NCBI GenBank assembly: GCA_022750455.1
Contig: JAKIVR010000003.1
Location: forward strand, 4,457-68,456
From: Thermoplasmata archaeon
GTDB lineage: Archaea; Thermoplasmatota; Thermoplasmata; Lutacidiplasmatales; UBA184
Reading direction: 5' to 3'
DNA length: 64,000 nt
This document shows positions 5,296 through 54,340 of this stretch, piece after piece. The notes beneath the pieces are model-generated. The model had not been told where the DNA came from and ran no database searches. It saw only the letters and a list, made by a program, of their open reading frames with translations. The translations under genes and the position numbers were made by a program. Positions within the stretch are counted from its first letter, which is position 1. Every line of letters starts with the position of its first letter.

Positions 5296-5313
5296 GGAAA
5301 GAGGAGCCAAACG

Positions 5314-9508: not shown

Positions 9509-9695
9509 CGCCGTACCGGGGTCTCGCGACGAGGTGAGACTTGTGTCAAAAACTAGTGTTAAAGAGGGGTGCGCCTCTCTCCCCCCCCGATATGCGCCGG
9601 ACGGAGAGGGGCTCGTCCGCGCCCTCGGCAGTTTCGAGCGGGAGCTCGGAGCGCGCCGAACGGCCCCGATCCACCGGACGAACGGAACGTAATCG

Positions 9696-13628: not shown

Positions 13629-13639
13629 GAGGAACCACA

Positions 13640-17332: not shown

Positions 17333-17334
17333 GA

Positions 17335-17633: not shown

Positions 17634-18970
17634 CGTACACGGACCGTGCCTCCGCCCCCGCTCTCCCGATCCCGGAACCGCCCTCTCGAACTCCCCCCTC
17701 CTCCAGCACGAATGTCATTGACGCCGTGCTCCGGGGCAAGTCCGACCTCTTCTTTGGGAGTCGAGAGATCCTTCGCGAGTCGTACGTCCCGGCCCGATTG
17801 CCCCACCGGGAGGAGCAGACGCGCAAGGTGGCGGAGATCCTCGTCCCCGCGCTCCGGGGCGACTTGCCTTCGAACCTCTTGATCTACGGGAAGATCGGGA
17901 CCGGCAAGACCGTCGTCGTCCAGCAAGTGCGCCACGAGTTCCAGCGACGCCCTGAGGCGGAGGGGAAGGTCACGTTCCTCGCGGTCAACTGCGCCACGAT
18001 CGACACCCCGTACTCGCTCCTCCAGACGATCGGAAACTCCCTCGCACCGACGGAGTCCGACCGGATCCCGACCGGGTGGTCCCTCGATCGGGTCCACACC
18101 GCGCTCCGCGACCAGATCGACCGCAAGGGCGGGATCTACCTGCTCGTCCTCGACGAGATCGACCGTCTCGTCGCGCGGAGCGGGGATGGCGTGCTCTACA
18201 CGCTCGCCCAGATCAACACCGAGCTCAGCCGTTCGCGGGTCGCCCTCATCGGGATCTCCAACGACCTGAAGTTCACGAGCCACCTCGATGCGAGGGTCCG
18301 CAGCCGGCTCAACGAGGAGAAGCTGGTCTTTCCCCCCTACGACGCCGCCATGCTCGAGGACATCCTCCAGGACCGGGCGAAGGAAGTCTTCCGCGAGGGT
18401 GTCGTCGACTCCGGGGTCATCAAGCGGTGCGCCGCCTACGCCACGCTCGAGAGCGGTGACGCCCGCCGGGCGCTTGCCCTGTTGCGTCTCGCCGCCGAGA
18501 TCGCGGAGCGGGAGCACGCGAAACGGATCACGTCCGAGCACGTGGTCAAGGCGAAGAGTCGCCTGGAGCTCGACATCATCGCCGAGTGCTGCCGGACCCT
18601 CCCCTCCCAGTGCAAGATCCTGCTCTACTCGATCCTGCAGATGTACGAGAGGCGGCGCGCCGGCGTGCTGACGGGCGAAGTGTACGAGGCGTATTCGCGT
18701 CTCTGCCAGCGCCTTGGGCTCGAGCCCCTCCACTCCCGCAGCATCTCGAACTATCTCTCCGAGCTCGAGAACCTTGGCCTGATCCGAGCGGTCGTCGTCT
18801 CGCGAGGACGGGGCGGCCGGACCCGGGAGATCGTCGTGGACGTGCCGATCGCCGAGACGTTCCCGGCGCTCGCCGAGGACCCTCTCCTCGCCCCCCTCGT
18901 CCGCCCTCGAGGCCCGGGCCAGACGATCCTCACCAACTTCGACAATCCGGATCGGACCTTCACGGCGTGA
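17555..18970 (+). CDS. orc1: Orc1/Cdc6 replication initiator
   Basis: Conserved LRESYVPARLPHREEQ segment. Walker A YGKIGTGKT. Walker B LVLDEID. Sensor GISND. C-terminal winged-helix region. Low-complexity P/S-rich N-terminal extension; alternative start ATG 17612. Confidence 0.9.
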   Translation: MEGEGTDRPRLEKLPDTARMSPGSTGSYTDRASAPALPIPEPPSRTPPSSSTNVIDAVLRGKSDLFFGSREILRESYVPARLPHREEQTRKVAEILVPALRGDLPSNLLIYGKIGTGKTVVVQQVRHEFQRRPEAEGKVTFLAVNCATIDTPYSLLQTIGNSLAPTESDRIPTGWSLDRVHTALRDQIDRKGGIYLLVLDEIDRLVARSGDGVLYTLAQINTELSRSRVALIGISNDLKFTSHLDARVRSRLNEEKLVFPPYDAAMLEDILQDRAKEVFREGVVDSGVIKRCAAYATLESGDARRALALLRLAAEIAEREHAKRITSEHVVKAKSRLELDIIAECCRTLPSQCKILLYSILQMYERRRAGVLTGEVYEAYSRLCQRLGLEPLHSRSISNYLSELENLGLIRAVVVSRGRGGRTREIVVDVPIAETFPALAEDPLLAPLVRPRGPGQTILTNFDNPDRTFTA

Positions 18971-18973
18971 CTC

Positions 18974-20602
18974 GTGGGACGGGCATCGTCGGGAGCTGGG
19001 TGGGGAGCTACGAGGAGTCGCTCTCGGACCCTGACCGCGCTGTCGATCGCGCTCGTCCTGGTCCTCGTGGTCGGTCTCGGTCTCCCATCCAGTGGTGGGG
19101 ACCGCTCGGTTCGATCGGGGAGCTCCCCCTCCACCTTCTCGGAAGTTCACGCGGAGAGTTCGACCTTGGCCGCTCGCTTCGTCCCTTCCTCGTGGACGGG
19201 GAAGGGCCCTTCTAACACCGTCCCGGTGGCCTCTTCACCGGAATCCCGAACCAACGTGCAGCCAACCGTGGAGCTCCGACCGACCTTCGGGGTTCGAACG
19301 CATAGTGGTCCGTTGGCGATCCTGCTGACCGCCAGCGCGTTGAACGATGACATCGGCCACAGCTTCCACGTGACCGCCCTGGTCTCGGGCGGGACCGGGC
19401 CGTACAACTACACCTGGTCGGACAACGCCTCGGGGTTCCTCTTGGCGAACGTGTCGTATGCCTCCACCTACGTCGACTCGCCGTACATCGACGGTCCGAA
19501 TGTGGTTTCGGTCGTCGTGCGCGACACGGCCGACGCGAACATCAGCTCCAACGTGACCGTGTACGTCTCGCCACCCCTCGATGCAGCCCCCTACTACCTC
19601 GGGCCCGGAGGGATCGAAGTGTTCTCGCCGCTATACACCGACGTGGGACAGAGCCTCACGTTCTATCCAAATCTCTTCGGCGGCTTGCCCCCGTACACGT
19701 ACCTCTGGACGTTCGGGGACCCGACGGGACCGTTGACCACCCCGAACGGGACCCACGTCTACAACGCGCCGGGTAACTACACGGTCCGACTCCAAGTGAC
19801 GGACTGGACCGGGGCGACGATCAACGCGACGACCGAAGTCTTCGCGAACGCGACGCCCACCGGGCGTCTCGGGTTCCCTTCGGCGACCGACTCCGGGGTC
19901 GCCGAGGAGTTCAAGCTCGCCGCGCTGAACGGGACCCCCCCATTCCTCTACACGCTCCAGTTCGGTGACGGCAACAGCTCGTCGGGCACGATCGGACTGG
20001 GCCGAACCGCCCCGCTCGTGGTCCACCCGTACTACCTGACCGGCGTGCTGACGGTCCGATTGACCCTCGAGGACGCGGTCGGGTCGTTCCTGAACCAGTC
20101 GTGGGAGATCTCGATCGCGCCCCCCCCCTCGGTGACCAGCATCGGGCCTCCGGGGCCGCTCCAACCCGGCGACTCCGCCCCGTTCCTCGTGAACGTGACC
20201 GGGGGGACCCAACCGTTCCGATATCTCTGGTCGTTCGGCGACGGCGCGGACGGCACCGGCCCCTCCGTCACCCACAGCTATCTGACGGCGGGCTCGTACA
20301 ATGTCGTCGTCAGCGTCACGGACGCTGCCAACTACACCGCCGTCGGATACGTCCTCGTCGTGGTCAACCCGACCCCCGCGCCGAACGCGGGGCTCATCGG
20401 GGCCGCCGAGACGGCCGTTCCCGCGTTCCTCGTCGGCCTCGTGGCCGGGATGTTGATCATGGTCCTCGAGGCCCGCTCCCGCCAGCGGCGGCAGCACCCC
20501 GAGACCCCGGAACCCGTGAAGGAAGATCCGTTCCGGATCGGGCCCCCGAGGTCACCGCCGGCGCTCGAGGCCGGACCCGACGAGACTCCCCCCCTCGAAT
20601 AG
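18974..20602 (+). CDS. surface protein with four PKD domains and C-terminal TM anchor
   Basis: N-terminal helix LTALSIALVLVLVVGLGL. PKD signatures YNYTWSDN, YTYLWTFGDPTG...GNYTVRLQVTD, LYTLQFGDGNSS, FRYLWSFGDGADG...GSYNVVVSVTD. C-terminal helix LVGLVAGMLIMVL plus tail. Confidence 0.75.
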   Translation: MGRASSGAGWGATRSRSRTLTALSIALVLVLVVGLGLPSSGGDRSVRSGSSPSTFSEVHAESSTLAARFVPSSWTGKGPSNTVPVASSPESRTNVQPTVELRPTFGVRTHSGPLAILLTASALNDDIGHSFHVTALVSGGTGPYNYTWSDNASGFLLANVSYASTYVDSPYIDGPNVVSVVVRDTADANISSNVTVYVSPPLDAAPYYLGPGGIEVFSPLYTDVGQSLTFYPNLFGGLPPYTYLWTFGDPTGPLTTPNGTHVYNAPGNYTVRLQVTDWTGATINATTEVFANATPTGRLGFPSATDSGVAEEFKLAALNGTPPFLYTLQFGDGNSSSGTIGLGRTAPLVVHPYYLTGVLTVRLTLEDAVGSFLNQSWEISIAPPPSVTSIGPPGPLQPGDSAPFLVNVTGGTQPFRYLWSFGDGADGTGPSVTHSYLTAGSYNVVVSVTDAANYTAVGYVLVVVNPTPAPNAGLIGAAETAVPAFLVGLVAGMLIMVLEARSRQRRQHPETPEPVKEDPFRIGPPRSPPALEAGPDETPPLE

Positions 20603-32329: not shown

Positions 32330-33871
32330 CTACCCTGGGCCGGAGCGCTCGCCCCAGTTGGTGACCCCGGCGGCCGCCAAGAGGCCCCCAAGGGCGGCGT
32401 CGTACGTCTCCGGGGTCGCCGCGAGCAGGGCTCGGGCGCGCTCTTGCAGCGCTTCCCCGAACTGACGCTCGGTGTCCGCGAACTGCCAGTTGTGAGCGGG
32501 GCCGCGGTCCATGGCGAGCAGCAGCCCCCAGGCCAACCCTCGCTCCCGACCTTCCCGGGGGAGGGTCTGCTCGAGTCGCCGTTCCGCGGCCGGGTTGCCG
32601 TTGATCCGGGCCTCCCGCGCGATCGCGTCGACAAAGGCGGCCTCCGGCACGAGCCGCTCGTATTGGGGGAGGGCCCCGAGCGCCGCGCGATCCGTCGAAT
32701 CGCGGGCCGCACGGCGGAGCAGCTCCGCCACTCGTCCGGGCGCACCCCGACCTTCGGCGACCCACGCCTCGGCGCGTTCGGGATCGTCCACGATCGCCCC
32801 GACGATCGTCTCGGCGTGGTCGCGCCACAGCTCCTCGAGGGCTCGACTCGCCCGGGGCTCGTCGAGGTCGATCTGTCGCGAGACCTCGGGGAGCACGGCC
32901 GTGAGCGCCCGCCGTTCCACGTCGTTCGGGTGCAGCGCCTCGATGAACGCGCCCGAGTTCTGTCCGTAGCAGACCCCGCCCGCGATGAACAGCGTCCCGC
33001 CTCGGCGGGCAACCGCCTGGTTGCACTCCGTGACGTACTCCTGCAGCAGCTCGCGGTCGCCGATCCGCCCGAGGTGGTACCGCTTCTCGGTGGCCCGTGC
33101 GATCTCCGGCAGGCGCTGGTGGGGGCAGTCGGGGCCGCCCCGGCAGTCGATGTTCCGGTGGGCGGCGACCGGGAACGACGCCTCCGGGTCCCGGATCGCG
33201 GCGCCCCCGGAGATCGAGGCGAGGAGGTGTCGGTCGTCCTTGGTGCACCGGTCGCAGACCTCCCAGGCGAGGTCGGCGTCGGTCCAGTGGATCTCCAGGT
33301 ACGGGCGACGCTCGCCCGCCTCGAGGTGAGAGCAGCGGGAGAGCTTCCCGTGCCGAGTGACCCGATACGGCAGCGCCCGCTCGAGCGCCTGGAGGTACTC
33401 GGGCGGGGGCACCGACGACGATCCCGGGCTCACGACCCCGTCGCTGACGGCGAAGAACGACCAGCCTTTGCGGGTCAGCGGCACGTAGGCGAGCAGGAGA
33501 CGCCGGGGCACGTCGTAGTTCTGCACGGCGATCTGCATCTCCTTCGGGGCGCTCGCCACCGGGGCGTACGGGACCTCCCCGTCGCCGAGCCGAACGGTGA
33601 CCAGCGGCGGCAGCTCCTCATCGAGGTACGTTCGGAGGACGCCCGCCAACGCGCGAGGCATGTCGTCGCCCCACCGTCGGAGATGGTCGAGTCGCTTCGG
33701 ATCGTCGCGGTTCTCCCGGACCTCCTCAAGGCGGGTGTGGAGCTTCTCGAACGCATCCTTCGGGCAGTCGCCGACCGGCCGCGGCAGGAGCGGATCGATG
33801 CTCTTGCGGAGTCGTTCGACCCGCTTCCAGAACTCCTCCTCCCACCGATTCGAGGCCCGACGGATGCGCAT
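32330..33871 (-). CDS. hypothetical Cys/His-cluster protein (513 aa)
   Basis: Protein-like composition with clusters CSHLE...CDRCTKDD and CRGGPDCPHQ. Antisense plus-strand ORF 32123-34483 is R/P-rich junk. Start ATG 33871 (MRIRRASNRWEEEF) preferred over 33940. Confidence 0.55.
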   Translation of the reverse strand: MRIRRASNRWEEEFWKRVERLRKSIDPLLPRPVGDCPKDAFEKLHTRLEEVRENRDDPKRLDHLRRWGDDMPRALAGVLRTYLDEELPPLVTVRLGDGEVPYAPVASAPKEMQIAVQNYDVPRRLLLAYVPLTRKGWSFFAVSDGVVSPGSSSVPPPEYLQALERALPYRVTRHGKLSRCSHLEAGERRPYLEIHWTDADLAWEVCDRCTKDDRHLLASISGGAAIRDPEASFPVAAHRNIDCRGGPDCPHQRLPEIARATEKRYHLGRIGDRELLQEYVTECNQAVARRGGTLFIAGGVCYGQNSGAFIEALHPNDVERRALTAVLPEVSRQIDLDEPRASRALEELWRDHAETIVGAIVDDPERAEAWVAEGRGAPGRVAELLRRAARDSTDRAALGALPQYERLVPEAAFVDAIAREARINGNPAAERRLEQTLPREGRERGLAWGLLLAMDRGPAHNWQFADTERQFGEALQERARALLAATPETYDAALGGLLAAAGVTNWGERSGPG

Positions 33872-33896
33872 CGTCGAGGCGAGGTCGGGGCCCGTA

Positions 33897-34496
33897 CTAA
33901 GCGCTTCGCGGCGGAGGAAGGGGGGTCTCCCCGCGGGCAAGGGCGAGGAAGTTCTCGAAGATCCGCCGCCCTCCGACGGTATGTTCGACCTCGGGGTGGA
34001 ACTGGACGCCGAACAGCGGACGGTCCGGCGCGGCCATCGCCTGGACCGGGCAGGCGGTCGAGCGGGCGAGCGTCGTCCACCCGGGCGGCGGCTGGGTCAC
34101 CTGGTCGTTGTGGTTCGCCCAGACCCGGGTCGGCGAGCTCAGACCGGTCCAGAGCGGGTGCACGGGGTCGCTCAGTTCGACCTCGACGCGACCGAACTCG
34201 CCGGCCGCGGCGTGGCTCACCGTGCCCCCGTAGTGTCGGGCGAGATACTGGTGACCGACGCAGATGCCGAGCACCGGGAGGCGCAGCACGTCGATCCACT
34301 CCGCCACCCGCCCGAGGGGCTCGGTGGAGCTCTCCAGGCTCAAGGCGCCCCCCGAGAGCACGACGGCGTCCGCCCCCGCGATCTCCTCGGGCGCGGCGGT
34401 GTTCGGCAGGATCTGACAATCGACCCCGAGGTCGCGCAGCACCCGCCACTCTCGGTGGGTCCACTGACCGCCGTTGTCGATGACCGGTACCTTCAT
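33897..34496 (-). CDS. guaAA: GMP synthase (glutamine-hydrolysing) subunit A, class I glutamine amidotransferase
   Basis: MKVPVIDNGGQWTHREWRVLRDLGV...LSGG...LGICVGHQ (catalytic Cys)...GVQFHPE. ~199 aa as in archaeal GuaAA. ATGA overlap with the upstream gene. Confidence 0.85.
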   Translation of the reverse strand: MKVPVIDNGGQWTHREWRVLRDLGVDCQILPNTAAPEEIAGADAVVLSGGALSLESSTEPLGRVAEWIDVLRLPVLGICVGHQYLARHYGGTVSHAAAGEFGRVEVELSDPVHPLWTGLSSPTRVWANHNDQVTQPPPGWTTLARSTACPVQAMAAPDRPLFGVQFHPEVEHTVGGRRIFENFLALARGETPLPPPRSA

Positions 34497-34855
34497 CGGG
34501 CTCCCTCCCCGCCTCCCCCCGGCTTCGAGGGCGGGGTCGGGGGGTCGCGAGCGGCGAGGAGCTCCTTCAGCTCTTCGCGGAGCTCGCTCACCTCCGTGCG
34601 CATGTGGAGCATCTCCTCCTCGAACGGGGTGAACGACCGGGTCGAGTAGATGCGGGACGAGAGGTAGAAGCCGACGAAGACCGCGCCGACGAGGGCGAGG
34701 ATCGTCACCAGGAGGATGCCGATGAGGATCGAGTACGGCGAGAGGATCGCGGTGGCGAGGGGCACGGTGAACAGGCGGGTGATCTCGGCGAGCTCGACGA
34801 TGACGAGCGCCCCGACGACGCCGATCCAGAAGATGCTCCACCGGGCGATCTTCAC
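34493..34855 (-). CDS. small membrane protein (3 TM) with C-terminal coiled coil
   Basis: MKIARWSIFWIGVVGALVIVELA...ILLVTILALVGAVFVGFYL, then EEEMLHMRTEVSELREELKELLAAR. 4-nt overlaps with both neighbours. Confidence 0.5.
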   Translation of the reverse strand: MKIARWSIFWIGVVGALVIVELAEITRLFTVPLATAILSPYSILIGILLVTILALVGAVFVGFYLSSRIYSTRSFTPFEEEMLHMRTEVSELREELKELLAARDPPTPPSKPGGGGEGAR

Positions 34856-35406
34856 GGACAGGCCCCCACTTCGAGGGTGAGCGGCAGTTCGACGGGGAGT
34901 GTATCGAGCGGGACCGCGCTGGGCGCGGTGCCCGAGAGCGCGGGGGTCAACGTCGCCACCAGGAGGGTCGTCCCCGAGACGGCCAAGACGTACTGCCCGC
35001 CGTAGACCGCGCGTCCGTTCTGGGGGTCGACGTACGTCGCCGTCACGTTCACCGCGACGGGATCGATCGAGGTCGTGAGGTTATCGAACAACGACTCCGA
35101 CGCGTTCGCCCATCGGCTCCAGTTGAGCCCTGCGGCGGAGGGGGGAGGCGGCCAGGTAGCATTGGCGATCGCGATCGAGAGGTTCAGGAACCGGATCGTC
35201 TCCACCCCGTCCACGTACAGCTTCAGGACGTTCATCCCCAGGGGCTGGTCGACGTCCAGCTTCGGCGCGCTGCCGAAGCACCCGGCCGTCGGAGTGTTCG
35301 GGGCGACGAGGTCCGGGGTGAGCACGATCAACAGCACCAGGAGGGCGCTCAGACCCGCGAGCGGCCAGTTGAGGACCCCGCGATCGGGGACTGGCACCGG
35401 GTTCAT
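34852..35406 (-). CDS. small secreted/membrane-anchored glycoprotein (184 aa)
   Basis: N-terminal helix LAGLSALLVLLIVL. N-x-S/T sequons NLS, NAT, NWS, NAS, NLT, NVT. ATGA overlap with the ubiX stop. Confidence 0.5.
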   Translation of the reverse strand: MNPVPVPDRGVLNWPLAGLSALLVLLIVLTPDLVAPNTPTAGCFGSAPKLDVDQPLGMNVLKLYVDGVETIRFLNLSIAIANATWPPPPSAAGLNWSRWANASESLFDNLTTSIDPVAVNVTATYVDPQNGRAVYGGQYVLAVSGTTLLVATLTPALSGTAPSAVPLDTLPVELPLTLEVGACP

Positions 35407-35981
35407 CCGGGTACCCCCACCTTCCATCCCCGATAGAGTTGGTGGGGGACGTGCAGGTGGTCGAGAACCTTGCCGGCGAGGTAGTCCGTGACGTCTTCGA
35501 TCGTCTTCGGATGGAGGTAGTAGGCGGGCTCGGGCGGCAGGATGACGACCCCGAGCTCGGCGAGCCGGGTGAGATGGCCGAGCAGGATCGGCGAGAGCGG
35601 GGTCTCGCGCACGACGAGCAGGAGCGGCCGCCGCTCCTTCAGGTGGACGTGCGCCGCGCGGGTCACCAGGGTATCGGCGAGGCCGAGCGCGATCTTGGCC
35701 GCCGTGTGCGAGGAGCAGGGCACCACCGCCATCGCCTGGGTCGGACGGGAGCCGCTCGCGTAGGCGTGGGCGAGGTCCTTGTCGTTGGCGATCTCGAGAG
35801 CCCACGGCCGGAGCGCGTCGAGGGGGAGCCCGCTCTCCTCGCGCAGCACCGCCTCGGCCCCCTCGGAGATGATGACGACCGGCGGCCGGCCCGCTTCGTG
35901 GAGGGCCCGGATGACCCGGAGCGCGATTGGGGCCCCGCTCGCCCCCGTGACGCCGATCAGGATCGGCGCGTCTTCGACCAA
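35403..35981 (-). CDS. ubiX: flavin prenyltransferase UbiX/PAD1 family
   Basis: ILIGVTGASGA P-loop-like start, LVVVRETPLS, ILPPEPAYY. 192 aa, typical of UbiX. Confidence 0.85.
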   Translation of the reverse strand: MVEDAPILIGVTGASGAPIALRVIRALHEAGRPPVVIISEGAEAVLREESGLPLDALRPWALEIANDKDLAHAYASGSRPTQAMAVVPCSSHTAAKIALGLADTLVTRAAHVHLKERRPLLLVVRETPLSPILLGHLTRLAELGVVILPPEPAYYLHPKTIEDVTDYLAGKVLDHLHVPHQLYRGWKVGVPG

Positions 35982-35998
35982 CGTTCCTTGCCCCCGGA

Positions 35999-36006
35999 GT
36001 TATAGC
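35999..36006. promoter_or_regulatory. quasi-symmetric TATA element (GTTATAGC) shared by divergent ubiX and thiolase genes
   Basis: Sole AT-rich element in the 44-nt gap between divergent starts (35981 minus, 36026 plus). ~21-25 nt from each start. Confidence 0.45.
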
Positions 36007-36025
36007 TCGGAACGGCTCGTTCGAT

Positions 36026-37210
36026 TTGAGGCATTCGGGAGTGCCACCCTCGGAGCGCGCCGCCCTGATCGGGGCCGGACATACTCGGTTCGGCGTGCTT
36101 CCGGACGCTCCTCGCACCCTGATCCGAGAGGCGGTCGACTCGGCGTTCGCGAGCGTCGATCGAGGCCTCGAGCGCTCGCAGGTCGGCGAGGCGTTCCTCG
36201 CCACCCTCGGCTTCTCGGGTTGGCAGTTGGGAAACTCCGCGGCTCTGTTGGCGGAGGAGGCCGGGATCCCCGGCGTCCCGGTCGTCCGGATCGAGAACGC
36301 CTGCGCCTCCGGCGGTTCGGCGCTCCGAGCGGCGGTCCGAACGATCGAGAGCGGCTCCCAGGAGGCGGTTCTCGTGGTCGGCGTCGAGAAGATGACCGAC
36401 GTCAGCTCCCGACGACGTCGGTACTGGCTCGGGGTCTCGGGCGACACCGAGTGGGAGCGGTTGGCCGGACTCACCTTCGCCGGGGTGTACGCGCTGATGG
36501 CCGCCCGCCATATGCACGACTACGGCACTCCGATCGAGGCGCTCGCCCAGGTGGCCGTGAAGAACCACGCGAACGGTCTGCTCAACCCGAACGCCCAGTT
36601 CCGGAAAGCGGTCCGCGTGGAGGACGTGCTCGCCGCCCCCCGCGTCGCCGATCCGCTCGGGCTGTACGACTGCTGCCCCGTCAGCGACGGGGCGTCCGCC
36701 CTGCTCCTGGTCGCGGAATCCGTGGCCCGACGGTACACGGACACGCCGGTGCGGGTCGTAGGGGCCGGCGCCGGCTCCGACCACCTCGCCGTGCACGATC
36801 GGGAGTCTCTCACCAGCCTCCACGCGACCCAGCGAGCCGCCGCGGAGGCGTTCCGCCATGCGCCGTTCGACCGGTCGAAGGTCCAGTTCGCCGAGGTCCA
36901 CGACTGCTTCACGATCGCCGAGATCCTGGCGCTGGAGGACCTCGGTTTCGCCGCGCCCGGAGAGGCGGCCCAGATGACACTGGAAGGGGCCACGGCCCGC
37001 TCGGGGCGGTTCCCCGTGAACCCCGATGGCGGATTGAAGTCGAAGGGGCACCCGATCGGCGCCACGGGCGTCAGTCAGGCGTACGAGATCTTTCTCCAGC
37101 TCCGCGGGGCGGCCGGGGCGCGGCAGATCCCCCAGGCGGAGCGGGCCCTCGCCCACAACGTCGGAGGTTCAGGAGCGACGGCGACCGTCGCCCTGTTCGA
37201 GAGGGCATGA
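36026..37210 (+). CDS. thiolase (acetyl-CoA C-acyltransferase, SCP-x/archaeal type)
   Basis: Active-site Cys in ENACASGGSA. GHPIGATG near the C-terminus. 394 aa. TTG start at 36026 (alternative GTG 36041). Confidence 0.85.
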   Translation: MRHSGVPPSERAALIGAGHTRFGVLPDAPRTLIREAVDSAFASVDRGLERSQVGEAFLATLGFSGWQLGNSAALLAEEAGIPGVPVVRIENACASGGSALRAAVRTIESGSQEAVLVVGVEKMTDVSSRRRRYWLGVSGDTEWERLAGLTFAGVYALMAARHMHDYGTPIEALAQVAVKNHANGLLNPNAQFRKAVRVEDVLAAPRVADPLGLYDCCPVSDGASALLLVAESVARRYTDTPVRVVGAGAGSDHLAVHDRESLTSLHATQRAAAEAFRHAPFDRSKVQFAEVHDCFTIAEILALEDLGFAAPGEAAQMTLEGATARSGRFPVNPDGGLKSKGHPIGATGVSQAYEIFLQLRGAAGARQIPQAERALAHNVGGSGATATVALFERA

Positions 37211-38307
37211 GCGACCGGATCCACCTCGTGGACGCGGCCGTGGCCCGCCCGCTCCGCCGTCTCCACGGCTTCGCCGTCGAAGGGGTCGATGAGGACGTCC
37301 TGACGCTCGCCGTCGAGGCCACGGCCCATCTCGGCCCTCTCCCGACTGTGGAGGCGAGCCCCCGGGCGATCGCTCGGATCCGACTGGTGGGGGAGTTCGG
37401 CCCCGAGGCGGAGAAGATCCTCCCCATCGCCCTCGGGCTTCCCGGGACTCCCGTCGACCGCGAACCCGTCGGGACGGGGGGGATCGAGCACGTTCTCCAA
37501 CGGTTCGCCTCCCTCGATCAGGGCGAGCTTCTGCTGCTCGCCGAACCCTCCCGCTGGTCGTCCGCCGGGATCCCGCGCACCGGGGCGGTCGGGATCGCGG
37601 TCTGGTTCCATCCCGAGGGGTTGGTGTCGATGGGGGTCAACGTCCCCACGACGTCGGGGGCCGTTCCTTCGGCGCCGGTACCCGGCTCGCCGGTCCTCTC
37701 CCTCGAACGTCTGTTCGCCGCGATGACCTCCCTTCCCCCGGAGATCACCGGGGCGATGCCCGGACATGCGACCTGGGATCCGTCGCGGGCCCCGGTCGCT
37801 CCCGAGCTTCCCGAACCGCCGACCCGACTCCCGATCGATCTCTCGCAGCTCTCCGAGGGGGCGTACGTTCCCGGCCCCCGATACTGGGAGAACGCCGCCG
37901 CCCGATGGCGGTTCGCGGCGGACGAGTGCTCGTCGTGCGGATCGGTCACGTTCCCCCCAAAGGGTCAGTGCCGGAGCTGCCGCGATCGAGGTCACCTCCG
38001 ACGGATCGAGCTCCCCTCGGAAGGGGTCGTGGAGACGGTCACGACCGTCCACGCGGGCGCGCAACCGAGCGAGTTCGATGGCCCGGTCGAAGTCGGAGGA
38101 GCCTACGATGTGGTGCTGGTTCGGCTGACCCCCTCGATTCGTGTACCTCTCCAAGTGACCGACGCGATCCCCGGCACGCTCCGGATCGGCGACCGCGCCG
38201 GGACCGTCTGGCGCCGGCTCTACCCGATGGAGGGGGAGTGGCGGTATGGCCGGAAGGCGACGCCGCTCCGCACGACCCGAACTCCGCCCCCCGGCGCCGG
38301 CCGGTAG
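37207..38307 (+). CDS. DUF35 (Zn-ribbon + OB-fold, thiolase/HMGCS-associated) protein with ~200-aa N-terminal HMGCS/KAS-III-like remnant lacking catalytic Cys
   Basis: ATGA overlap with the thiolase stop. C-terminal CSSCGSVTFPPKGQCRSC zinc ribbon followed by an OB-fold-like YDVVLVRL...LRIGDR. N-terminus contains VEGVDEDVLTLAVEATAHL, similar to the HMG-CoA synthase pyEDxxTxAvxAA motif, but no active-site Cys. Confidence 0.7.
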   Translation: MSDRIHLVDAAVARPLRRLHGFAVEGVDEDVLTLAVEATAHLGPLPTVEASPRAIARIRLVGEFGPEAEKILPIALGLPGTPVDREPVGTGGIEHVLQRFASLDQGELLLLAEPSRWSSAGIPRTGAVGIAVWFHPEGLVSMGVNVPTTSGAVPSAPVPGSPVLSLERLFAAMTSLPPEITGAMPGHATWDPSRAPVAPELPEPPTRLPIDLSQLSEGAYVPGPRYWENAAARWRFAADECSSCGSVTFPPKGQCRSCRDRGHLRRIELPSEGVVETVTTVHAGAQPSEFDGPVEVGGAYDVVLVRLTPSIRVPLQVTDAIPGTLRIGDRAGTVWRRLYPMEGEWRYGRKATPLRTTRTPPPGAGR

Positions 38308-38349: not shown

Positions 38350-40161
38350 TTAGGCGGGGGTCGGGCTCTTCGGAGCCGCCTCGACCCACTTCGAGTTCGT
38401 CCACCCCTCGTAGATCGACTTCTGGAGAGGCGTGGGGGACTCGAGGGCGTGGAACTTGTACTTCGCGGGTGGGGGCCGGGTGGTCGTCACCGTCGCCGAG
38501 GTGAGAAGGCCGCGCCGGAAGAAGGTGAGTTCCACCGTGGAACCCGGTGGGTACCGCTTCCACGTCTCGTCGAACGACTCCGGGGCGACCCGGATCTTCT
38601 CGATGGCGACGATCTCATCCCCGGGGGAGATGCCGGCCCGACGCGCCGGGCCGCCGTCCAGGACGACGGTGACCTTGAGCCGGGACCCCTCCGTGGAGAA
38701 CTCGATGCCGAGGAACCCCTTCTCCTCCTCCGGCTCGCCGGACGGGTTTGGTTCCTTCGGAGCCGGCCCGACGCGGAGCCCCGCATAGCGGGCGAACTCG
38801 TTCGCGTCGATCTCCTTCGTCCCCCGGACGTACTGCTCGAAGAACGGTCCGAGGTCCAGCGCGGTGAACTTCTCCACGACCCCCTGGAACGCGTCGTCGT
38901 CGATGCCACGCTCCGGTCGACCGTACTCCGTCCACAGGTGGCGGAAGACGTCGTCCAATGAGAGCCGGTTCTCGGTACGGTGCCGGATCTCGAGGTCGAG
39001 GCACCAGGAGACCACGAGACCCTTCAGGTAGTAGGAGACCGACTGGTTCCGGCTCTCCTCGTACCGCTGGTACAGGTCGATCCACGCCGTGAACGACGCC
39101 TCCTCGAGGCTCCGCACGAGGCGTCCGGGGACGGTCTCGAGGACCCGGATCTGGTCCGCCATCATCTCGAGGAACTTCGCCGGGGTGACGAGCTCCGCGC
39201 GGCGGAGCAGCACCTTGGAGGCGTAGTCCGTGGTCCCTTCCATCCACCAGAGCAGGCGCGTGTAGTTCTCGCGCGTGAAGTCGAACGGTCCGAGCACCTT
39301 CGGCCGGATCCGTTTCACGTTGTACAGATGGAAGTACTCGTGCGAGGCGAGCCCGAGGAACCGCTCGTACGAGCTCTTCGGCTGGAAGCAGTTGCGCTCG
39401 ACAGCGAGCGCGGTCGACGCCTTGTGCTCGAGGCCGCCATCGGCCTTGTCGCTCAGATGGGTGAAGAAAGTGTACGAGTGAAGAGGGGTGCCGCCCATGA
39501 ACCGCATCGTCGCCTCCACGAGCTTGCGGCCATCCTCCTCGAGCCGATGGGGCTCGTAGTTCCCCGGGCCGCCACAGATGACGAACTGATGCGGAACTCC
39601 CGACGCCCGGAACGGGACCACCACGGGGGTCCCGCAGTCGATAGGCGTGTCCACGAGCTCCTCGTAGTCCTTCGCGCGCAACCGTGTCGGGTGATCCCCG
39701 ACCCGCGGAAGCTCGGCGAAGGCGGACCAGCCTTCGGGGAGGTGGAGGACGAGATCGATCGGCTCCTTCTCCCGCCCGACCACGTACGGCAGGCAGCGCG
39801 TCGCGTTGAGGAAGATGTGCTCGGTGGTGACGTCCAGGCCGTCATCCGTCGCCTCCCGGCCGTAGACGGAGTACCGGACGTCCAGCTCGGCAGAATCCGT
39901 GGACGGGATCCGCCACTCATTCTTGGACAACCGGTCGACCGTCACCGGCTCGTCCCCGGGCGCCCTCGTCACACGGAAGCCGGCGACCTCCCTCGCAGAG
40001 TCCCGGATCCCGTACGCCCCGGGCGCCCACACGGGCAGGACGATCCGCGTCTCCCGACCCCGGGTCCCGTGGATCCGGAGGCGGAACTGGGCCCGGTGGG
40101 TCGGCCCGTCGAACGATTCTAGGATGTATTCCAGTGGGTGGGACGAGGAACTTTCGGCCAC
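38350..40161 (-). CDS. peptidase M61 (glycyl aminopeptidase family) with C-terminal PDZ domain
   Basis: HEYFHLYNVKRIRP (HExxH). WWMEGTTDY (Glu ligand region). PDZ-like GFLGIEF...GISPGDEIVAIE. Confidence 0.8.
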   Translation of the reverse strand: MAESSSSHPLEYILESFDGPTHRAQFRLRIHGTRGRETRIVLPVWAPGAYGIRDSAREVAGFRVTRAPGDEPVTVDRLSKNEWRIPSTDSAELDVRYSVYGREATDDGLDVTTEHIFLNATRCLPYVVGREKEPIDLVLHLPEGWSAFAELPRVGDHPTRLRAKDYEELVDTPIDCGTPVVVPFRASGVPHQFVICGGPGNYEPHRLEEDGRKLVEATMRFMGGTPLHSYTFFTHLSDKADGGLEHKASTALAVERNCFQPKSSYERFLGLASHEYFHLYNVKRIRPKVLGPFDFTRENYTRLLWWMEGTTDYASKVLLRRAELVTPAKFLEMMADQIRVLETVPGRLVRSLEEASFTAWIDLYQRYEESRNQSVSYYLKGLVVSWCLDLEIRHRTENRLSLDDVFRHLWTEYGRPERGIDDDAFQGVVEKFTALDLGPFFEQYVRGTKEIDANEFARYAGLRVGPAPKEPNPSGEPEEEKGFLGIEFSTEGSRLKVTVVLDGGPARRAGISPGDEIVAIEKIRVAPESFDETWKRYPPGSTVELTFFRRGLLTSATVTTTRPPPAKYKFHALESPTPLQKSIYEGWTNSKWVEAAPKSPTPA

Positions 40162-43608: not shown

Positions 43609-43860
43609 GATGGGTCAACCCTGTGAGCAAGTTCCCAAAGCGCACCTCCCCTTAACAAGGCGGTCGAGCGGGAAGGGACGGCGGCCGTCCTGAGGGATTT
43701 TCGGTTTCGATGCGCATTTGTCGCCACGGAAGCCATGCGATTCCTCCTCATGGTAGAGCGTGACTTGTCGCTGCCGTGACGACAGATGGATTATGTAGGG
43801 ACAGGGGGATGATGCGCCCAGCGACCACCCGCCTCGGTGGCCGAAATCGAGAGGAAAAAT

Positions 43861-45573
43861 ATGCCCGCGAGAGTAATGAAGGAATTCCAGGCGCCGCGCG
43901 GACTGCCTCGTAAGACGGCGTCCGTGTGCCCCGAATGCATCAAGGTGATCCCCGCGGTCGTCCGCGAGAAGGACGGGCGCGTCATCATGGAGAAGACGTG
44001 CCGCAACCACGGCTACTTCTGGGACATCATTTCGAACGACGTCGACTTCTACCTCCGGATGGAGGTCTATGCCCACGACGGGGTCGGCTACGAGAACCCG
44101 TACTACGAGAAGTTCCGCGGCTGCCCGACCACCTGCGGGATGTGCAGTCACCACAAGTCGCACACCGGTCTCGCCCTGATGGACCTGACCAACCGCTGCA
44201 ATCTGAAGTGCCCGGTCTGCTTCGCGAACGCCAACGCGGCCGGCTACGTCTACGAGCCGACCCGCGAGCAGATCTACTTCATGCTCAAGACGCTCCGGGA
44301 GCAGAAGCCGGTCGGTGCCGTCGCCGTCCAGTACTCCGGAGGCGAGCCGACGCTCTCCCCGCTGTTCTTGGAGGCGTGCACGATGGCCCGCGATCTCGGC
44401 TTCAAGCAGATCCAGGTCGCCACGAACGGGATCCGGATGGCGAACGAGCCCGGCTTCGCCCAACAGGCCCGCAACGCGGGACTGCACACGCTCTACCTCC
44501 AGTTCGATGGGCTGGACGACGAGATCTACCGGAAGGTCCGGGGGGTCCCGATGCTGAAGGTCAAGCAGAAGGCGATCCAGGCCGCGCGGGAGACTCACTC
44601 CTCGGCCGAGGAGCTCGCCGCCGGGAAGCCGGACAAGCCGCTCAGCGTCGTGCTCGTCCCGACCCTCGTGGGCGGATTCAACGAGAAGGAGATCTGGCCG
44701 ACGGTGAAGTTCGCGATCGACAACCTGGACGTCGTCCGGGGCGTTAACTTCCAGCCGGTCGCCCTCACGGCGCGGATCCCCGACCGCGACAGGTTCCAGA
44801 TGCGGTTCACCCAGTCGGACCTCGTCCGGATCCTCTGCACGGACGGACCGTTCGAGAAGTCGGACTTCTTCCCCGTGCCGTCGGTGGCCCCGATCTCGGA
44901 GCTCGTCTCGATCATCCACGGCGAAGAGAAGATGACCCTGACGACCCACCCGGGCTGCGGATGCGCCACGTTCGCCTTCGTCTCGCAGGACGGCCAGAAG
45001 ATCACGCCCCTGCCCCGGTTCATGGACGTCGACGGGTTCTTCGAGAATGTCGAAGGGCTCATCGAGAAGTACCGGGACGCGCGGTTCGCTCGGGTGCGGA
45101 CGGCCGTCGCAGGAGCTCGACTGCTCCACGACGTGTCGAAGTACTTCGACTTCTCGAAGGCCCCGGAGGGTCTGAGCGAGAAGAACTGCGTCAAGGTGAT
45201 CGCGGGCATCTTCACCGAGGGGAACAAGGAAGCGCTCGCCAAGTTCACCTGGCGCACGCTCTACATCGGGAACATGCACTTCCAGGACGCGTACGACTAC
45301 GATATCCAGCGCCTCATGCGCTGCGATATCCACTACTCCGTCCCGGACGGGCGCATCATCCCGTTCTGCTCGTACAACTCGGGCCCGATCTACCGGACGG
45401 AGGTCGAGAAGAAGTTCTCGATCGCCATCCCGGACTGGCAGAAGGCGAAAGCCTCGAGCGGGATCGCGCTGAAGACCATCGAGACGATGGGCGTCAACGG
45501 CGAGGTCGTCGTGGACCCGGAGTACTACCGGATCAAGGCGCTGAAGGGCGCCCCCGGGATGAGCAGCACGTAA
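43861..45573 (+). CDS. radical SAM enzyme with auxiliary Cys clusters (candidate tetraether lipid synthase Tes/GDGT-MAS-like)
   Basis: CX3CX2C CNLKCPVC followed by the SAM-binding GGEP (QYSGGEPTL). A second CX3CX2C CPTTCGMC. N-terminal CPEC...C. C-terminal CGCATFAF. ATG 43861 preferred over GTG 43837. Confidence 0.8.
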   Translation: MPARVMKEFQAPRGLPRKTASVCPECIKVIPAVVREKDGRVIMEKTCRNHGYFWDIISNDVDFYLRMEVYAHDGVGYENPYYEKFRGCPTTCGMCSHHKSHTGLALMDLTNRCNLKCPVCFANANAAGYVYEPTREQIYFMLKTLREQKPVGAVAVQYSGGEPTLSPLFLEACTMARDLGFKQIQVATNGIRMANEPGFAQQARNAGLHTLYLQFDGLDDEIYRKVRGVPMLKVKQKAIQAARETHSSAEELAAGKPDKPLSVVLVPTLVGGFNEKEIWPTVKFAIDNLDVVRGVNFQPVALTARIPDRDRFQMRFTQSDLVRILCTDGPFEKSDFFPVPSVAPISELVSIIHGEEKMTLTTHPGCGCATFAFVSQDGQKITPLPRFMDVDGFFENVEGLIEKYRDARFARVRTAVAGARLLHDVSKYFDFSKAPEGLSEKNCVKVIAGIFTEGNKEALAKFTWRTLYIGNMHFQDAYDYDIQRLMRCDIHYSVPDGRIIPFCSYNSGPIYRTEVEKKFSIAIPDWQKAKASSGIALKTIETMGVNGEVVVDPEYYRIKALKGAPGMSST

Positions 45574-49593: not shown

Positions 49594-50076
49594 TCATTTT
49601 CCAATCTTCTCCAGGCGCTGCGCGATCTCTCGGATCTCCCCACGAACCTCGTTCAACTGTTCCGGGTAATCTCGGGCGAGGTCCTCAAGGTAGCCGGCGT
49701 AGCTTCGGATTTCCCGGGTGACCTCCGCCACACTCTGGGGCCGCCCCGTGACGAACCCGAGCGGGAAGTTCACCGTCTCCCGGCCCTTGTCGGTGAGCTC
49801 GTACTTGCCGTCGGCCTCTTGCCGGCGGATCACCCCTTCCTTCGTCAACTCTTCCAGCAGGGGATAGATCGAGCCCGGGGAGGGTCGCCACCAGCCCATC
49901 GAGATCGACTCCATCGAGTCGATGAGCTGGGCTCCCGTGCGGGGGGATCGGGCGAGGATCATGAGGACCCAGGTGCGCAATCCGCCGCGATGACGTCCAA
50001 AGCCGTGTCCCGGTCCGCCGTGACGGGCGCCGGGCTTGTGGCCGCCAAACCACCATCGGGCTGCGCTGTCGTCCAT
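49594..50076 (-). CDS. PadR-family transcriptional regulator
   Basis: wHTH LRTWVLMILARSPRTGAQLIDSME...GSIYPLLEELTKEGVI. Start ATG 50076 places a TATA at -28 and the palindromic operator between TATA and start. Confidence 0.8.
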   Translation of the reverse strand: MDDSAARWWFGGHKPGARHGGPGHGFGRHRGGLRTWVLMILARSPRTGAQLIDSMESISMGWWRPSPGSIYPLLEELTKEGVIRRQEADGKYELTDKGRETVNFPLGFVTGRPQSVAEVTREIRSYAGYLEDLARDYPEQLNEVRGEIREIAQRLEKIGK

Positions 50077-50078
50077 GT

Positions 50079-50112
50079 CGATATCGATTAACCGATATCG
50101 GCTCGCTATAAA
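50079..50112 (-). promoter_or_regulatory. padR promoter/operator: 22-bp quasi-palindrome CGATATCG-ATTAAC-CGATATCG plus TATA (CTATAAAG, read on minus as CTTTATAG)
   Basis: Two copies of the self-complementary octamer CGATATCG at 50079-50086 and 50093-50100, flanked by TATA at 50105-50112. The padR ATG (50076) lies 3 nt from the repeat. Confidence 0.55.
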
Positions 50113-50207
50113 GCCGTACTGCACCCGCCGAGAGTCCCCCGCGTTCTCCGCTCCCCCGCCGCCACATCGTTATGTCGCTCTCGACCTCCCGTCGATAGGA
50201 GACCGCC

Positions 50208-52678: not shown

Positions 52679-53302
52679 GTGCGTCGCTTCCTGCTGTTGG
52701 CCCACCGAGTGCCGGTCGACGGTGCGTTCACCCTGAACGACCTCGCCGGGGGCGGGGGCCGGATGGACGAGATCGCTCGTTGTGTCTCGACAGCGTTCAC
52801 CATATCGAACGACCTCCGTCGCGACACGGAGCTCACGGTCCTCTTCGGATCCGAGCCCCCGCCCCGGAGCCGCCGGATCGACATCTACGGAGCGCGCCTG
52901 CGGCTGCTGAACCCGGACGAGCGGTCGACGGCCGCGCTGCTCAAGAACGCGCTCATCCGCTCGCACAACGTCCCCGGGATCGTGGAATCCTCTCCGGGGA
53001 TGGTCGTGGGACCTTCCCAACCGCTCGAGGACCTGGCCCGGTTCGCCTCGCAGCCCGGCTGCTGGTGGCTCGTGGAAGGAGGGGCTCCTCTGGCCTCCCT
53101 CGCTCCGACATCGGACGTCGCCGCGGTCCTGAGCGATCCGACCGACCCGACCCCGCCGGAACGCGAGATCCTGGAGAGATCTGGCGCAGTCTCCATCCGT
53201 GTCGGGCCGAGATCGCTCCGCAGTTCCCAAGTCCTCGACGTTGTCCAGAACGTCCTCGACGGCGCCTCCGAGGCAGTTCCCGTCGACCGGACGCCCCGCT
53301 AG
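52679..53302 (+). CDS. trmY: tRNA (pseudouridine54-N1)-methyltransferase TrmY (SPOUT, DUF358)
   Basis: MRRFLLLAH...FTLNDLAGGGGRMDEIARCVSTAF...RRD...VLFGSEPPP...PDER matches the TrmY pattern F.L.DL.G..GR.D...RCVS.AF...RRD. 207 aa. Confidence 0.7.
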   Translation: MRRFLLLAHRVPVDGAFTLNDLAGGGGRMDEIARCVSTAFTISNDLRRDTELTVLFGSEPPPRSRRIDIYGARLRLLNPDERSTAALLKNALIRSHNVPGIVESSPGMVVGPSQPLEDLARFASQPGCWWLVEGGAPLASLAPTSDVAAVLSDPTDPTPPEREILERSGAVSIRVGPRSLRSSQVLDVVQNVLDGASEAVPVDRTPR

Positions 53303-54324
53303 AGCAGGAGGGGCGTGTTGTCCTCGGCCTTCCCTTGGAGGGCGTCCCGGACGGAGCTCGGTCGGAGTCCCCCGACGACGGCCGTGAGCCGAACGACCTC
53401 CCGACGCTCCGGATGGGTTCGATTGCCGACGAGCATCCGACGGGGCTCCCCGAGCCGGGACCGCATCGATCGCCAGATGCGGTCGACGGTCTCGAGGGTG
53501 AGGTTCGAGCCCCCGTCCACGTGCACGAGCGCCGACGGCCCGGCCGAGAGCTCGAAGTCGAGGAGGGTCTCCGTCAGCGCCTGGTCGACGAGCCGCTCCG
53601 GTTCCGAGATGTGCTCCTCGGCGCGGAGCAAGGTCGAGACCCCGGATTGCTCCAGATGGCCCCTCAGGCTCGCCAGGTCGACGTTCATCTGCGACGGGTG
53701 CTCGACCATGTCGACGAGCCCTTCGACGAGGCTGTGCATGTACGCGTTCCGGACGTGCAGCACCCGAGGGACGGGGAGGGAGGCGAACCGCTGCAGCTTC
53801 TGGTTGGAGACCGCGAGGAGGAGCCCCCCCATCTCTTCGAGCTCCTGGAGCGCCGCGAGCGCGTTCTCCCGACGGTTCGGGTTCGTCTCCATCTCGATGT
53901 GGAACGGGAGGATCGCGATCGGCACGGCGAGAACGTCGTGATCCCTCAGAGCCGAGGTGAGGTACGGGAGGAGGGCGGAGCCCGTGCCCCCTCCCAGGGC
54001 GGCGATCAGAAAGACGATGTCATGAGGGACCAGGAGCGGCACCACGTCGTCGTGGGCTTCCGCCATGCCCGCATGGACGGCGTCCCGATCCCCTCCGCTG
54101 CCGTGGCCCCGAAGCGTCCGCTGGCCGAGAAGGATCCGTTCCGCCACGTCGAGGCCTCTGAGGTGCCGGGCGTCCGTATTGATCGCGACCGCCTTGACCG
54201 ACGGGGAGAGTCCGAATCCCATCAGGTCGTGGACGGCGTCGCAGCCGGCGCCCCCGAGCCCTACGACGGCGAAGCCGCCCGAATGACCGTAAGGCGCCCA
54301 CGACGGGAGCGGTTCCCCTTTCAT
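53299..54324 (-). CDS. tubulin/FtsZ-family GTPase, CetZ-like
   Basis: VVGLGGAGCDAV (G-box 1). AINTDARHLRGLD. LLGQRTLRGHGSGGD (CetZ-type GHGxGxD rather than FtsZ GLGAG). ALGGGTGSA (tubulin signature GGGTGS). Start ATG 54324 (MKGEPLPS...). Confidence 0.7.
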   Translation of the reverse strand: MKGEPLPSWAPYGHSGGFAVVGLGGAGCDAVHDLMGFGLSPSVKAVAINTDARHLRGLDVAERILLGQRTLRGHGSGGDRDAVHAGMAEAHDDVVPLLVPHDIVFLIAALGGGTGSALLPYLTSALRDHDVLAVPIAILPFHIEMETNPNRRENALAALQELEEMGGLLLAVSNQKLQRFASLPVPRVLHVRNAYMHSLVEGLVDMVEHPSQMNVDLASLRGHLEQSGVSTLLRAEEHISEPERLVDQALTETLLDFELSAGPSALVHVDGGSNLTLETVDRIWRSMRSRLGEPRRMLVGNRTHPERREVVRLTAVVGGLRPSSVRDALQGKAEDNTPLLL

Positions 54325-54340
54325 GGCGCCGTCTCCCGGG

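Follow-up and report, generated by a model that had tools for sequence, protein, structure and literature searches.

The window analysed here is a stretch of 64,000 nucleotides from a Thermoplasmata archaeon (assembly GCA_022750455.1, contig JAKIVR010000003.1, positions 4,457 to 68,456 of the forward strand; G+C content 67.5%), in which a thiolase gene is followed by an overlapping gene whose 366-aa product, here named X-DUF35, is identical (100%) to the NCBI entry L3K03_01000, a "hypothetical protein". The N-terminal domain of X-DUF35 is a predicted pseudo-enzyme with a fold like that of HMG-CoA synthase (HMGS or HMGCS) and KAS-III, and it is fused to a C-terminal DUF35 module. The reading that we prefer, with a probability of roughly 0.6, is that an active thiolase is genetically coupled to this pseudo-HMGS-DUF35 protein, which would act as its scaffold, and that the pair would supply acetoacetyl-CoA to the mevalonate pathway.

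The thiolase and its proposed DUF35-fused partner

An initial annotation, made from the DNA sequence alone, had placed a thiolase gene on the + strand, and the profile searches confirmed it: the product matched PF22691 (8.4e-45) and PF00108 (4e-22), and scored 445.8 bits against the NCBIfam subfamily NF004720, above its cut-off of 420. The best solved relatives were archaeal acetyl-CoA acetyltransferases, namely 7yvy_A (1.8e-78) and 6esq_A, a subunit of the thiolase/HMGCS/DUF35 complex of M. thermolithotrophicus (3.3e-73). The three motifs needed for thiolase chemistry (CxS, HDxF and GHx; PMC12960953) were intact, as C88-A-S, H287-D-C-F and G-H336-P, respectively. The locus was compared with 85 related loci of ~20 kb each (86 sources when the window is counted), in which the full-length thiolase copies scored 554-630 bits. 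The thiolase stop codon and the X-DUF35 start codon share an ATGA overlap, and the thiolase-then-fusion order was found in every locus with upstream sequence present (79/86 sources); these two features constitute the genetic coupling of the pair.

Two length classes of X-DUF35 occupied the same syntenic slot among the best 120 relatives, about 85 short forms (320-400 aa), to which the window protein belongs, and about 30 long forms (415-490 aa). The window protein has four cysteines in all (C241, C244, C255 and C258), every one in the zinc ribbon of the DUF35 module, and the four are invariant in the family alignment. Its matches to PF12172 and PF01796 (residues 230-335) reached 21.7 bits each, just under the respective thresholds of 23.2 and 27.1, which its relatives pass. 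The profile of the long forms matched 6esq_E, the DUF35 chain of the M. thermolithotrophicus complex, at 6e-15, and in a Foldseek search the C-terminal part of the AlphaFold2 model of the window protein (predicted local distance difference test, pLDDT, 88.7; predicted template modelling score, pTM, 0.87) matched PhlB (4.9e-9) and 6esq_E (8.5e-9, TM 0.84). The family profile and the structural match thus uphold the C-terminal DUF35 module of the initial annotation, in spite of the sub-threshold Pfam scores. Of the families that it had named for scanning, the two for DUF35 gave the matches just described, and the two for HMGCS (PF01154 and PF08540) gave none, either in the window protein at E<=1 or in 10 relatives at E<=0.1; Pfam as a whole found nothing in the first 220 residues of X-DUF35.

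Family profiles and structure comparison did recover a thiolase-like fold in this N-terminal region. The full-length long-form profile matched PhlA (2.1e-4) and an HMG-CoA synthase (5hwq, 7e-4) over its N-terminal 140 positions, and the profile of the N-domain only matched PhlA (9skh_A) at 4.4e-5 and HMGCS at 0.012-0.015. Foldseek aligned the N-terminal ~170 residues of the window model with the N-half of HMG-CoA synthases (5hwo, 4.8e-6; 1xpk, 6.5e-6), and the N-terminal ~300 residues of a long form (P0012, pLDDT 79.1) spanned the whole KAS-III/HMGS fold (FabH 2x3e, 3e-11; 1xpl, 1.2e-10; archaeal HMGCS 6et9_I, 8.5e-10). An hhalign comparison of the family alignments with the single S. aureus MvaS sequence yielded a 41-column match with probabilities of 11% and 1.6%, which was used as an anchor only, the HMMER profile searches against the PDB and the Foldseek matches being decisive.

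The catalytic tetrad of archaeal HMGCS (E82/C114/H238/N270) is essential, and its mutation abolishes activity (PMC12960953). When the profile was aligned to M. xanthus MvaS, a Phe (VGxF; F64 in the window protein) stood opposite the catalytic Glu of VGTE, and the segment that bears the catalytic Cys appeared as an insertion in HMGCS relative to the X-DUF35 family. No Cys was present within residues 1-240 of the window protein and no residue was conserved at the Cys position across the family, the long forms likewise being without a conserved Cys. Short forms matched just positions 1 to ~150 of the profile, and therefore the half of the fold that bears the His and the Asn is gone; in place of the complete two-half fold of the thiolase superfamily, the window protein retains the N-half only (~170 aligned columns against HMGCS). 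The initial annotation had described an HMGCS/KAS-III-like N-terminus of ~200 aa lacking the catalytic Cys: the similarity and the Cys loss stand, and the length is corrected to a fold of ~150 aa followed by a Pro-rich linker of ~65 aa.

A D-E-D..T motif (D28-E29-D30, T33) does not vary among the long forms and is conserved to at least 90% among the short ones; it is also found in archaeal HMGCS (SPDEDTATIAVEAA) and in PhlA. Several Gly/Ala positions were invariant across both forms as well, within N-domains that share 25-40% identity among family members. Selection was assessed from the ratio of nonsynonymous to synonymous substitution rates (dN/dS, NG86 method) in seven independent pairs of related short-form genes, with values of 0.13-0.40 for the N-domain, 0.26-0.77 for the linker and 0.07-0.20 for the DUF35 module. 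Because its dN/dS is 0.13-0.40, the half-domain is taken to be kept by selection, and the earlier suggestion of a "fossil" of an HMGCS-DUF35 fusion had to be abandoned in view of this purifying selection, the retained D-E-D..T motif and the confidently modelled fold.

With one genome scanned per GTDB species, members of the X-DUF35 family were detected in 141 genomes. The 80 that were kept are all titled as Thermoplasmata or Thermoplasmatales metagenome-assembled genomes (MAGs), one of them labelled "bacterium", and include UBA184 and Candidatus Lutacidiplasmatales; the latter is the TMEG order, with high-GC (~69%) genomes of ~2.1 Mb (PMC9287336). When the N-domain profile was run exhaustively with HMMER against 1.84 billion representatives, only 140 proteins were found at E<=1e-3. 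The tail of this list holds other Cys-less HMGS-like proteins, stand-alone or DUF35-fused (among them P0203 of a Methanobacteriota MAG and P0196 of a Thermoplasmatota MAG), and also three canonical HMGCS, the best canonical HMGCS of the representative search (P0200) being located in a bacterial context. The module of a thiolase followed by an HMGS-like-DUF35 fusion was present in both distant archaeal loci inspected (L086 and L087), in the first of them beside an enoyl-CoA hydratase gene.

As a separate observation on the long forms, the genes of two loci (L001, 11340-11458; L003, 11340-11452) encode a C-terminal tail of ~45 aa rich in Arg, Pro and Ser (pLDDT <50), and ~115 nt of the sequence that codes for it is shared with the convergent M61 peptidase gene. 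The tail may be genuine and disordered, or it may arise from read-through of a high-GC frame.

In archaea, the thiolase/HMGCS/DUF35 complex pulls forward the unfavourable first step in the synthesis of membrane-lipid precursors, and in thiolase-fold proteins the N-half forms the dimer interface. In the reading that we prefer, the rightward unit would be a two-gene, translationally coupled operon in which a thiolase is followed by its obligatory non-catalytic partner. The thiolase, predicted to be active, would interconvert two acetyl-CoA with acetoacetyl-CoA and CoA, and the DUF35 module would dock on it by analogy with the M. thermolithotrophicus complex. The role of the pseudo-HMG-CoA-synthase part, which is without the E-C-H-N set and, in this genome, without the C-terminal half of the fold, would most likely be structural, in dimerisation or in shaping the thiolase interface or the CoA site. 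The acetoacetyl-CoA made by the complex would most likely enter the mevalonate pathway, a true HMG-CoA synthase being encoded elsewhere. The arrangement of thiolase and X-DUF35 is fixed in the order Lutacidiplasmatales (TMEG/UBA184).

The intergenic region between ubiX and the thiolase gene

The divergent gene upstream of the thiolase encodes, as judged from its matches, a bona fide flavin prenyltransferase of the UbiX family: its product matched PF02441 (Flavoprotein, E=3.7e-41) and passed the curated cut-offs of NF004685 (189.9 bits; cut-off 188) and TIGR00421 (168.9 bits; cut-off 108.9). The start column is kept as GTG or TTG among relatives, supporting the minus-strand gene starting at 35981 that had been called initially. 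For the thiolase, the initial start at TTG 36026 was rejected and GTG 36041 is most likely the true one: the thiolase of the nearest relatives begins at an ATG homologous to this GTG (MPSEQ, versus MPPSER here), the frame of the TTG start is closed by a TAG in one related locus (L022), and the resulting protein of 389 aa agrees in length with its relatives (387-389 aa). The gap between ubiX and the thiolase gene is 59 bp with this start (44 bp with TTG 36026).

An alignment of 66 distinct intergenic regions revealed two conserved boxes. The TATA-like GTTATAGC (box A) is present as described in the initial annotation, which had taken it for the only AT-rich element of the gap; a second one, GATTTGAG (box B), is the best conserved element of the region (G[AT]TAAGA), with 58-66 of the 66 loci in agreement at six of its eight positions. 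The two boxes are spaced by 25 nt (30 nt in six loci), and TTG 36026 falls within box B. A C-rich run borders them towards ubiX and a G-rich run towards the thiolase gene, and on its own mRNA each reads as G-rich and resembles a Shine-Dalgarno (SD) sequence. The word TTATA occurs twice in the window, counting both strands, versus 3.4 expected, both times in intergenic DNA; this count is unremarkable, and the evidence for box A is therefore its conservation. A scan of the intergenic region for repeats found nothing meaningful.

Measured from box A, the ubiX start is 21.5 nt away (in most relatives 17.5 nt) and GTG 36041 is 38.5 nt away; the initial annotation had given ~22-25 nt for each start. 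At two putative leaderless promoters of the window (those of the M61 and DUF6015 genes) the TATA centres are 25.5-27 nt from the start. Each gene may instead use its distal box (box B for ubiX, box A for the thiolase), so that transcription would start ~25 nt from the box and the SD-like runs would fall within leaders of 12-22 nt; this crossed use fits the geometry better, because box A is too near the ubiX start when compared with the putative leaderless promoters. Box B might also serve in both directions, and two leaderless mRNAs from one shared box A would be the least compatible with these distances. That an apparent single TATA turned out to be one of two conserved boxes, with the earlier thiolase start codon inside the second, is a useful caution.

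The initial annotation had combined a single quasi-palindromic TATA (GTTATAGC), driving two leaderless divergent transcripts, with the proposal that ubiX stands beside the thiolase gene to provide prenyl-FMN for the UbiD-type decarboxylase of the archaeal mevalonate pathway. This combination is improbable. It has in its favour that box A exists and is conserved, that binding by TBP is nearly symmetric, with orientation set by the B recognition element (BRE) and TFB, and that the order ubiX(-)/thiolase(+)/X-DUF35(+) was found in all 74 sources that retain enough upstream sequence (73 loci and the window). The better conserved box B, the short distance from box A to the ubiX start, the probable thiolase start at 36041 and the SD-like runs before both starts argue otherwise. 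As for the functional link, ubiX heads a leftward operon of its own with two membrane protein genes and a glutamine amidotransferase gene, joined by ATGA overlaps, and among the 40 open reading frames (ORFs) scanned in the window no UbiD, HMGCS, HMGR or mevalonate kinase was found. The 85 related loci likewise yielded no canonical HMGCS, UbiD or mevalonate gene. Because the whole block of >10 kb around the pair is equally conserved, the adjacency of ubiX and thiolase is uninformative on function, and it was discarded as functional evidence. Quinone biosynthesis is an equally possible role for UbiX in these organisms, which are aerobes (lifestyle from PMC9287336).

A perfect 9-nt inverted repeat, CCGATCAGG / CCTGATCGG, was noticed at 35953-35961 and 36064-36072, 102 nt apart, where ubiX and the thiolase gene encode the N-terminal parts of their products. 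It is most likely a coding coincidence and not a signal, both copies encoding ...LIG... in opposite directions.

Gene neighbourhood and other features of the window

The coordinates of the locus are given in Table 1. The conserved block extends leftward beyond the ubiX operon, with a gene for a 536-aa protein without a Pfam family (32330-33940, minus strand; same position in 64/66 related loci) situated between the operon and a methylase gene (63/63), and with Usp (62/62) and KdpB (36/37) genes also maintained. No Rfam family was found in the window.

Table 1. Features of the ubiX/thiolase/X-DUF35 locus (window coordinates) and the evidence on which each is based.
Feature	Position	Strand	Evidence
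Class-I glutamine amidotransferase gene, last in the leftward ubiX operon	33897..34496	-	Pfam GATase 2e-35; 69/69 related loci; 4-nt overlap with preceding gene
Small membrane protein, 120 aa, ubiX operon	34493..34855	-	ORF; no significant Pfam family; 71/71 loci
Membrane or secreted protein, 184 aa; start overlaps ubiX stop (ATGA)	34852..35406	-	No Pfam family; 72/72 loci
ubiX, flavin prenyltransferase, 192 aa, TTG start	35403..35981	-	PF02441, NF004685, TIGR00421
C-rich run GCCCCCGG, G-rich and SD-like on the ubiX mRNA strand	35990..35997	-	CCCC in 46-60 of 66 loci; putative SD role
Box A, GTTATAGC, consensus CTTAAGAG in relatives	35999..36006		T 53, T 58, A 41, A 53, G 34, A 46 of 66 loci
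Box B, GATTTGAG, consensus GATAAGAC	36023..36030		G 60, A 49, T 65, A 60, A 58, G 64, A 66 of 66 loci
SCP2-type (acetoacetyl-CoA) thiolase, 389 aa from GTG 36041 (394 aa from alternative TTG 36026)	36041..37210	+	Pfam, NCBIfam and PDB matches; probable start from relatives
X-DUF35 gene, 366 aa	37207..38307	+	ATG overlaps thiolase TGA as ATGA
Catalytically dead N-terminal half of HMGS/KAS-III (thiolase-superfamily) fold, residues 1-150	37207..37656	+	AlphaFold2 pLDDT ~90, Foldseek, profiles
Pro-rich linker with short helices, residues 151-215, where long forms keep the C-terminal half of the fold	37657..37851	+	pLDDT 54-89; profile coverage
DUF35 module: 4-Cys zinc ribbon, OB fold, RRLYPMEGEWRYGRKA motif, short tail; residues 216-366	37852..38307	+	Pfam, profile, Foldseek
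Convergent M61 glycyl aminopeptidase with PDZ domain; end of thiolase operon	38350..40161	-	Pfam M61 4e-41; downstream in 53/77 loci

Further observations were made elsewhere in the window. Upstream of an HMPTM-type radical-SAM gene (PF23545 and PF04055; ATG 43861), in the region 43778-43863, the TATA-like ACGACAGATGGATTATGTAGG is located ~65-70 nt before the ATG in all the related loci (~68), followed by GTGGGTGG and an apparent hairpin whose stem sequence varies between loci. The region may be a structured 5' leader; an Rfam scan at gathering thresholds gave no match for it, and RNAalifold, run on a MAFFT alignment of 34 sequences that is possibly poor, gave no consensus structure. In the region 50074-50113, a PadR gene on the minus strand (ATG 50076) is preceded by the TATA-like CTTTATAG at 50106-50113, which contains one of the two TTATA words of the window; the stretch that separates this element from the PadR start contains CGATATCG-ATTAAC-CGATATCG, in which a self-palindromic octamer is present twice, likely as an autoregulatory operator.

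In the region 17332-18970, an Orc1/Cdc6 gene (Cdc6_C 1e-24, Cdc6_lid 3e-22) has upstream of it a non-coding stretch of ~170-220 nt with a CT-rich tract and a AAAAGTAGATATGG element, which is a candidate replication origin. A double-AAA (Cdc48-like) ATPase of 1276 aa is encoded at 5296-9126, its N-terminal ~700 aa having no assigned family; the three ORFs upstream of it (3-5295) have no Pfam family, and it is followed at 9693-20602 by several very large surface proteins with PKD, BNR and CarboxypepD_reg domains. A tubulin/FtsZ-family gene (53299-54564, minus strand; Tubulin 3e-25, FtsZ_C 2e-9) shows an unusually long Pro/Gly-rich N-terminal extension in an open frame, its start codon being uncertain.

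Alternative readings and related systems

Several results weigh against an active thiolase with a pseudo-HMGS scaffold in mevalonate supply. The thiolase did not reach the cut-off of NF053570, the equivalog of the M. thermolithotrophicus enzyme (383 bits versus 600). The structural claims are made from AlphaFold models, and structure alone does not split HMGS from FabH ancestry, the top long-form match being FabH 2x3e; a PhlA/HMGS ancestry of the N-domain is favoured by the sequence profiles only. A search for the canonical HMGCS on which this reading depends, by tblastn and phmmer with S. aureus MvaS (checked against 1xpk) and a rebuilt M. thermolithotrophicus HMGCS as queries, found none in the window or the 85 related loci. 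The one characterised complex with a fused inactive HMGS-DUF35 protein, that of P. fluorescens, carried out acetoacetyl-CoA thiolysis only, and produced neither acetoacetyl-CoA nor HMG-CoA from acetyl-CoA in vitro (PMC12960953); a biosynthetic role is therefore not guaranteed here.

This last result leads to the possibility that the pair is a degradative or specialised thiolase, engaged in acetoacetyl-CoA thiolysis, beta-oxidation or an archaeal fatty-acid-synthase-like complex, with a canonical HMGCS/thiolase/DUF35 set encoded elsewhere. Archaea often hold several ketothiolase/DUF35 pairs with differing substrates (bioRxiv 10.1101/2024.07.05.601840), Lutacidiplasmatales are predicted to use fatty acids (PMC9287336), and an enoyl-CoA hydratase gene adjoins the pair in the distant relative L086, as mentioned above. 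On balance we consider this reading unlikely, while granting it real weight: subunits of the mevalonate complex are among the best solved relatives of both proteins (6esq_A and 6esq_E), every genome has one copy of the pair, in a syntenic block of housekeeping character, and its thiolase is highly conserved, and beta-oxidation genes were called beside it in none of the 85 Lutacidiplasmatales loci. Other readings concern the N-terminal region of X-DUF35. That it is a functionless, decaying remnant or spacer left by an HMGCS-DUF35 fusion would agree with the loss of all the catalytic residues, the deletion of half of the fold in the short forms, the low identity of the N-domains and the fast-evolving linker (dN/dS up to 0.77). 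It is very improbable, given the constraint on the N-domain in the seven independent pairs, the positions conserved in both forms, the compact modelled domain with a pLDDT of ~90 and the retention of the domain in all 141 species. The opposite view, that the HMGS-like domain remains catalytic through a non-canonical active site and serves the lineage as its HMG-CoA synthase, could appeal to the selection on the domain, to the labelling of some long forms as HMG-CoA synthase by JGI, and to a canonical HMGCS not being seen in any sequence examined (~20 kb per genome). We regard it as barely credible for a family with no conserved residue at the Cys position, no Cys loop, Phe in place of Glu and, in its short forms, no His/Asn half, when mutation of the tetrad abolishes the activity of the archaeal enzyme (PMC12960953).

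A more speculative scenario, and an improbable one, is that Lutacidiplasmatales have dismantled the channelling complex, the half-fold working by complementation with itself or with a free HMGCS monomer to rebuild a pseudo-thiolase fold and a shared CoA site; in the extreme case there would be no canonical HMGCS and HMG-CoA would arise by an unrecognised route. If true, an essential pathway would include a "half thiolase-fold" protein that is both natural and functional. Under the coupled thiolase and scaffold that we favour, a whole order of abundant acid-soil archaea would have kept the thiolase and the scaffold while its synthase subunit became a dead, mostly halved domain under selection, an archaeal counterpart in primary metabolism to the bacterial inactive HMGS-DUF35 complexes of 2026. 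The family would also offer a natural series from full pseudo-enzyme to half-domain for asking what a non-catalytic subunit contributes, and it raises the question of where and how these organisms make HMG-CoA.

The locus can be compared with four kinds of known systems. With the thiolase/HMGCS/DUF35 complex of M. thermolithotrophicus (2018, as cited in PMC11522927 and PMC12960953) it shares the type of thiolase, the DUF35 module and an HMGS-derived third component, to judge from the long-form match to 6et9_I and from the PDED..T motif common to archaeal HMGCS. It differs from that complex in that the HMGS part is fused N-terminally to DUF35, lacks the Glu, Cys, His and Asn and is halved in this genome, in that two genes are present instead of three, and in that no active HMGCS was found in the neighbourhood. 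The ketothiolase/DUF35 pairs of Sulfolobus acidocaldarius, including a proposed archaeal fatty-acid synthase complex, likewise combine an SCP2-type thiolase with an adjacent DUF35 assembly mediator (bioRxiv 10.1101/2024.07.05.601840); their DUF35 proteins are stand-alone and without an HMGS-like domain, and their reductase and dehydratase partners are absent from the locus described here.

PhlABC of Pseudomonas protegens and MucABC of Streptococcus are tripartite assemblies of a thiolase-like, a Cys-less HMGS-like and a DUF35 component, and they resemble the window pair in that the N-domain matches PhlA (9skh_A) best in sequence and the DUF35 part matches PhlB best in structure. In these systems, however, the thiolase-like subunit has lost the HDxF motif and acts as a C-acetyltransferase in secondary-metabolite clusters (PMC12960953); the thiolase of the window keeps HDCF, no biosynthetic cluster surrounds it, and the HMGS-like part beside it is truncated and belongs to a fusion protein. 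An HMGCS with a C-terminally fused DUF35 is also known in bacteria, from Streptomyces albus, as cited in PMC11522927.

The closest likeness in architecture, as described, is to PfACAT and the fused HMGS-DUF35 protein of P. fluorescens, which stand for ~1,000 similar bacterial loci and whose HMGS domain is without the tetrad (Nat Commun 2026, PMC12960953). In both cases a thiolase that keeps CxS, HDxF and GHx adjoins one protein in which a tetrad-less HMGS-like domain is followed by DUF35, and X-DUF35 agrees with the definition of a fused inactive HMGS-DUF35 partner given in that work, the window copy being a truncated derivative of the architecture. Here, in contrast, the proteins are archaeal, restricted to one order and so divergent that no Pfam HMGS match was obtained, the N-terminal strands of the HMGS part are trimmed, and the C-terminal half of its fold is deleted in most members, including that of the window. 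X-DUF35 is thus an archaeal, truncated and lineage-specific counterpart to the bacterial fused inactive HMGS-DUF35 partners described in 2026.

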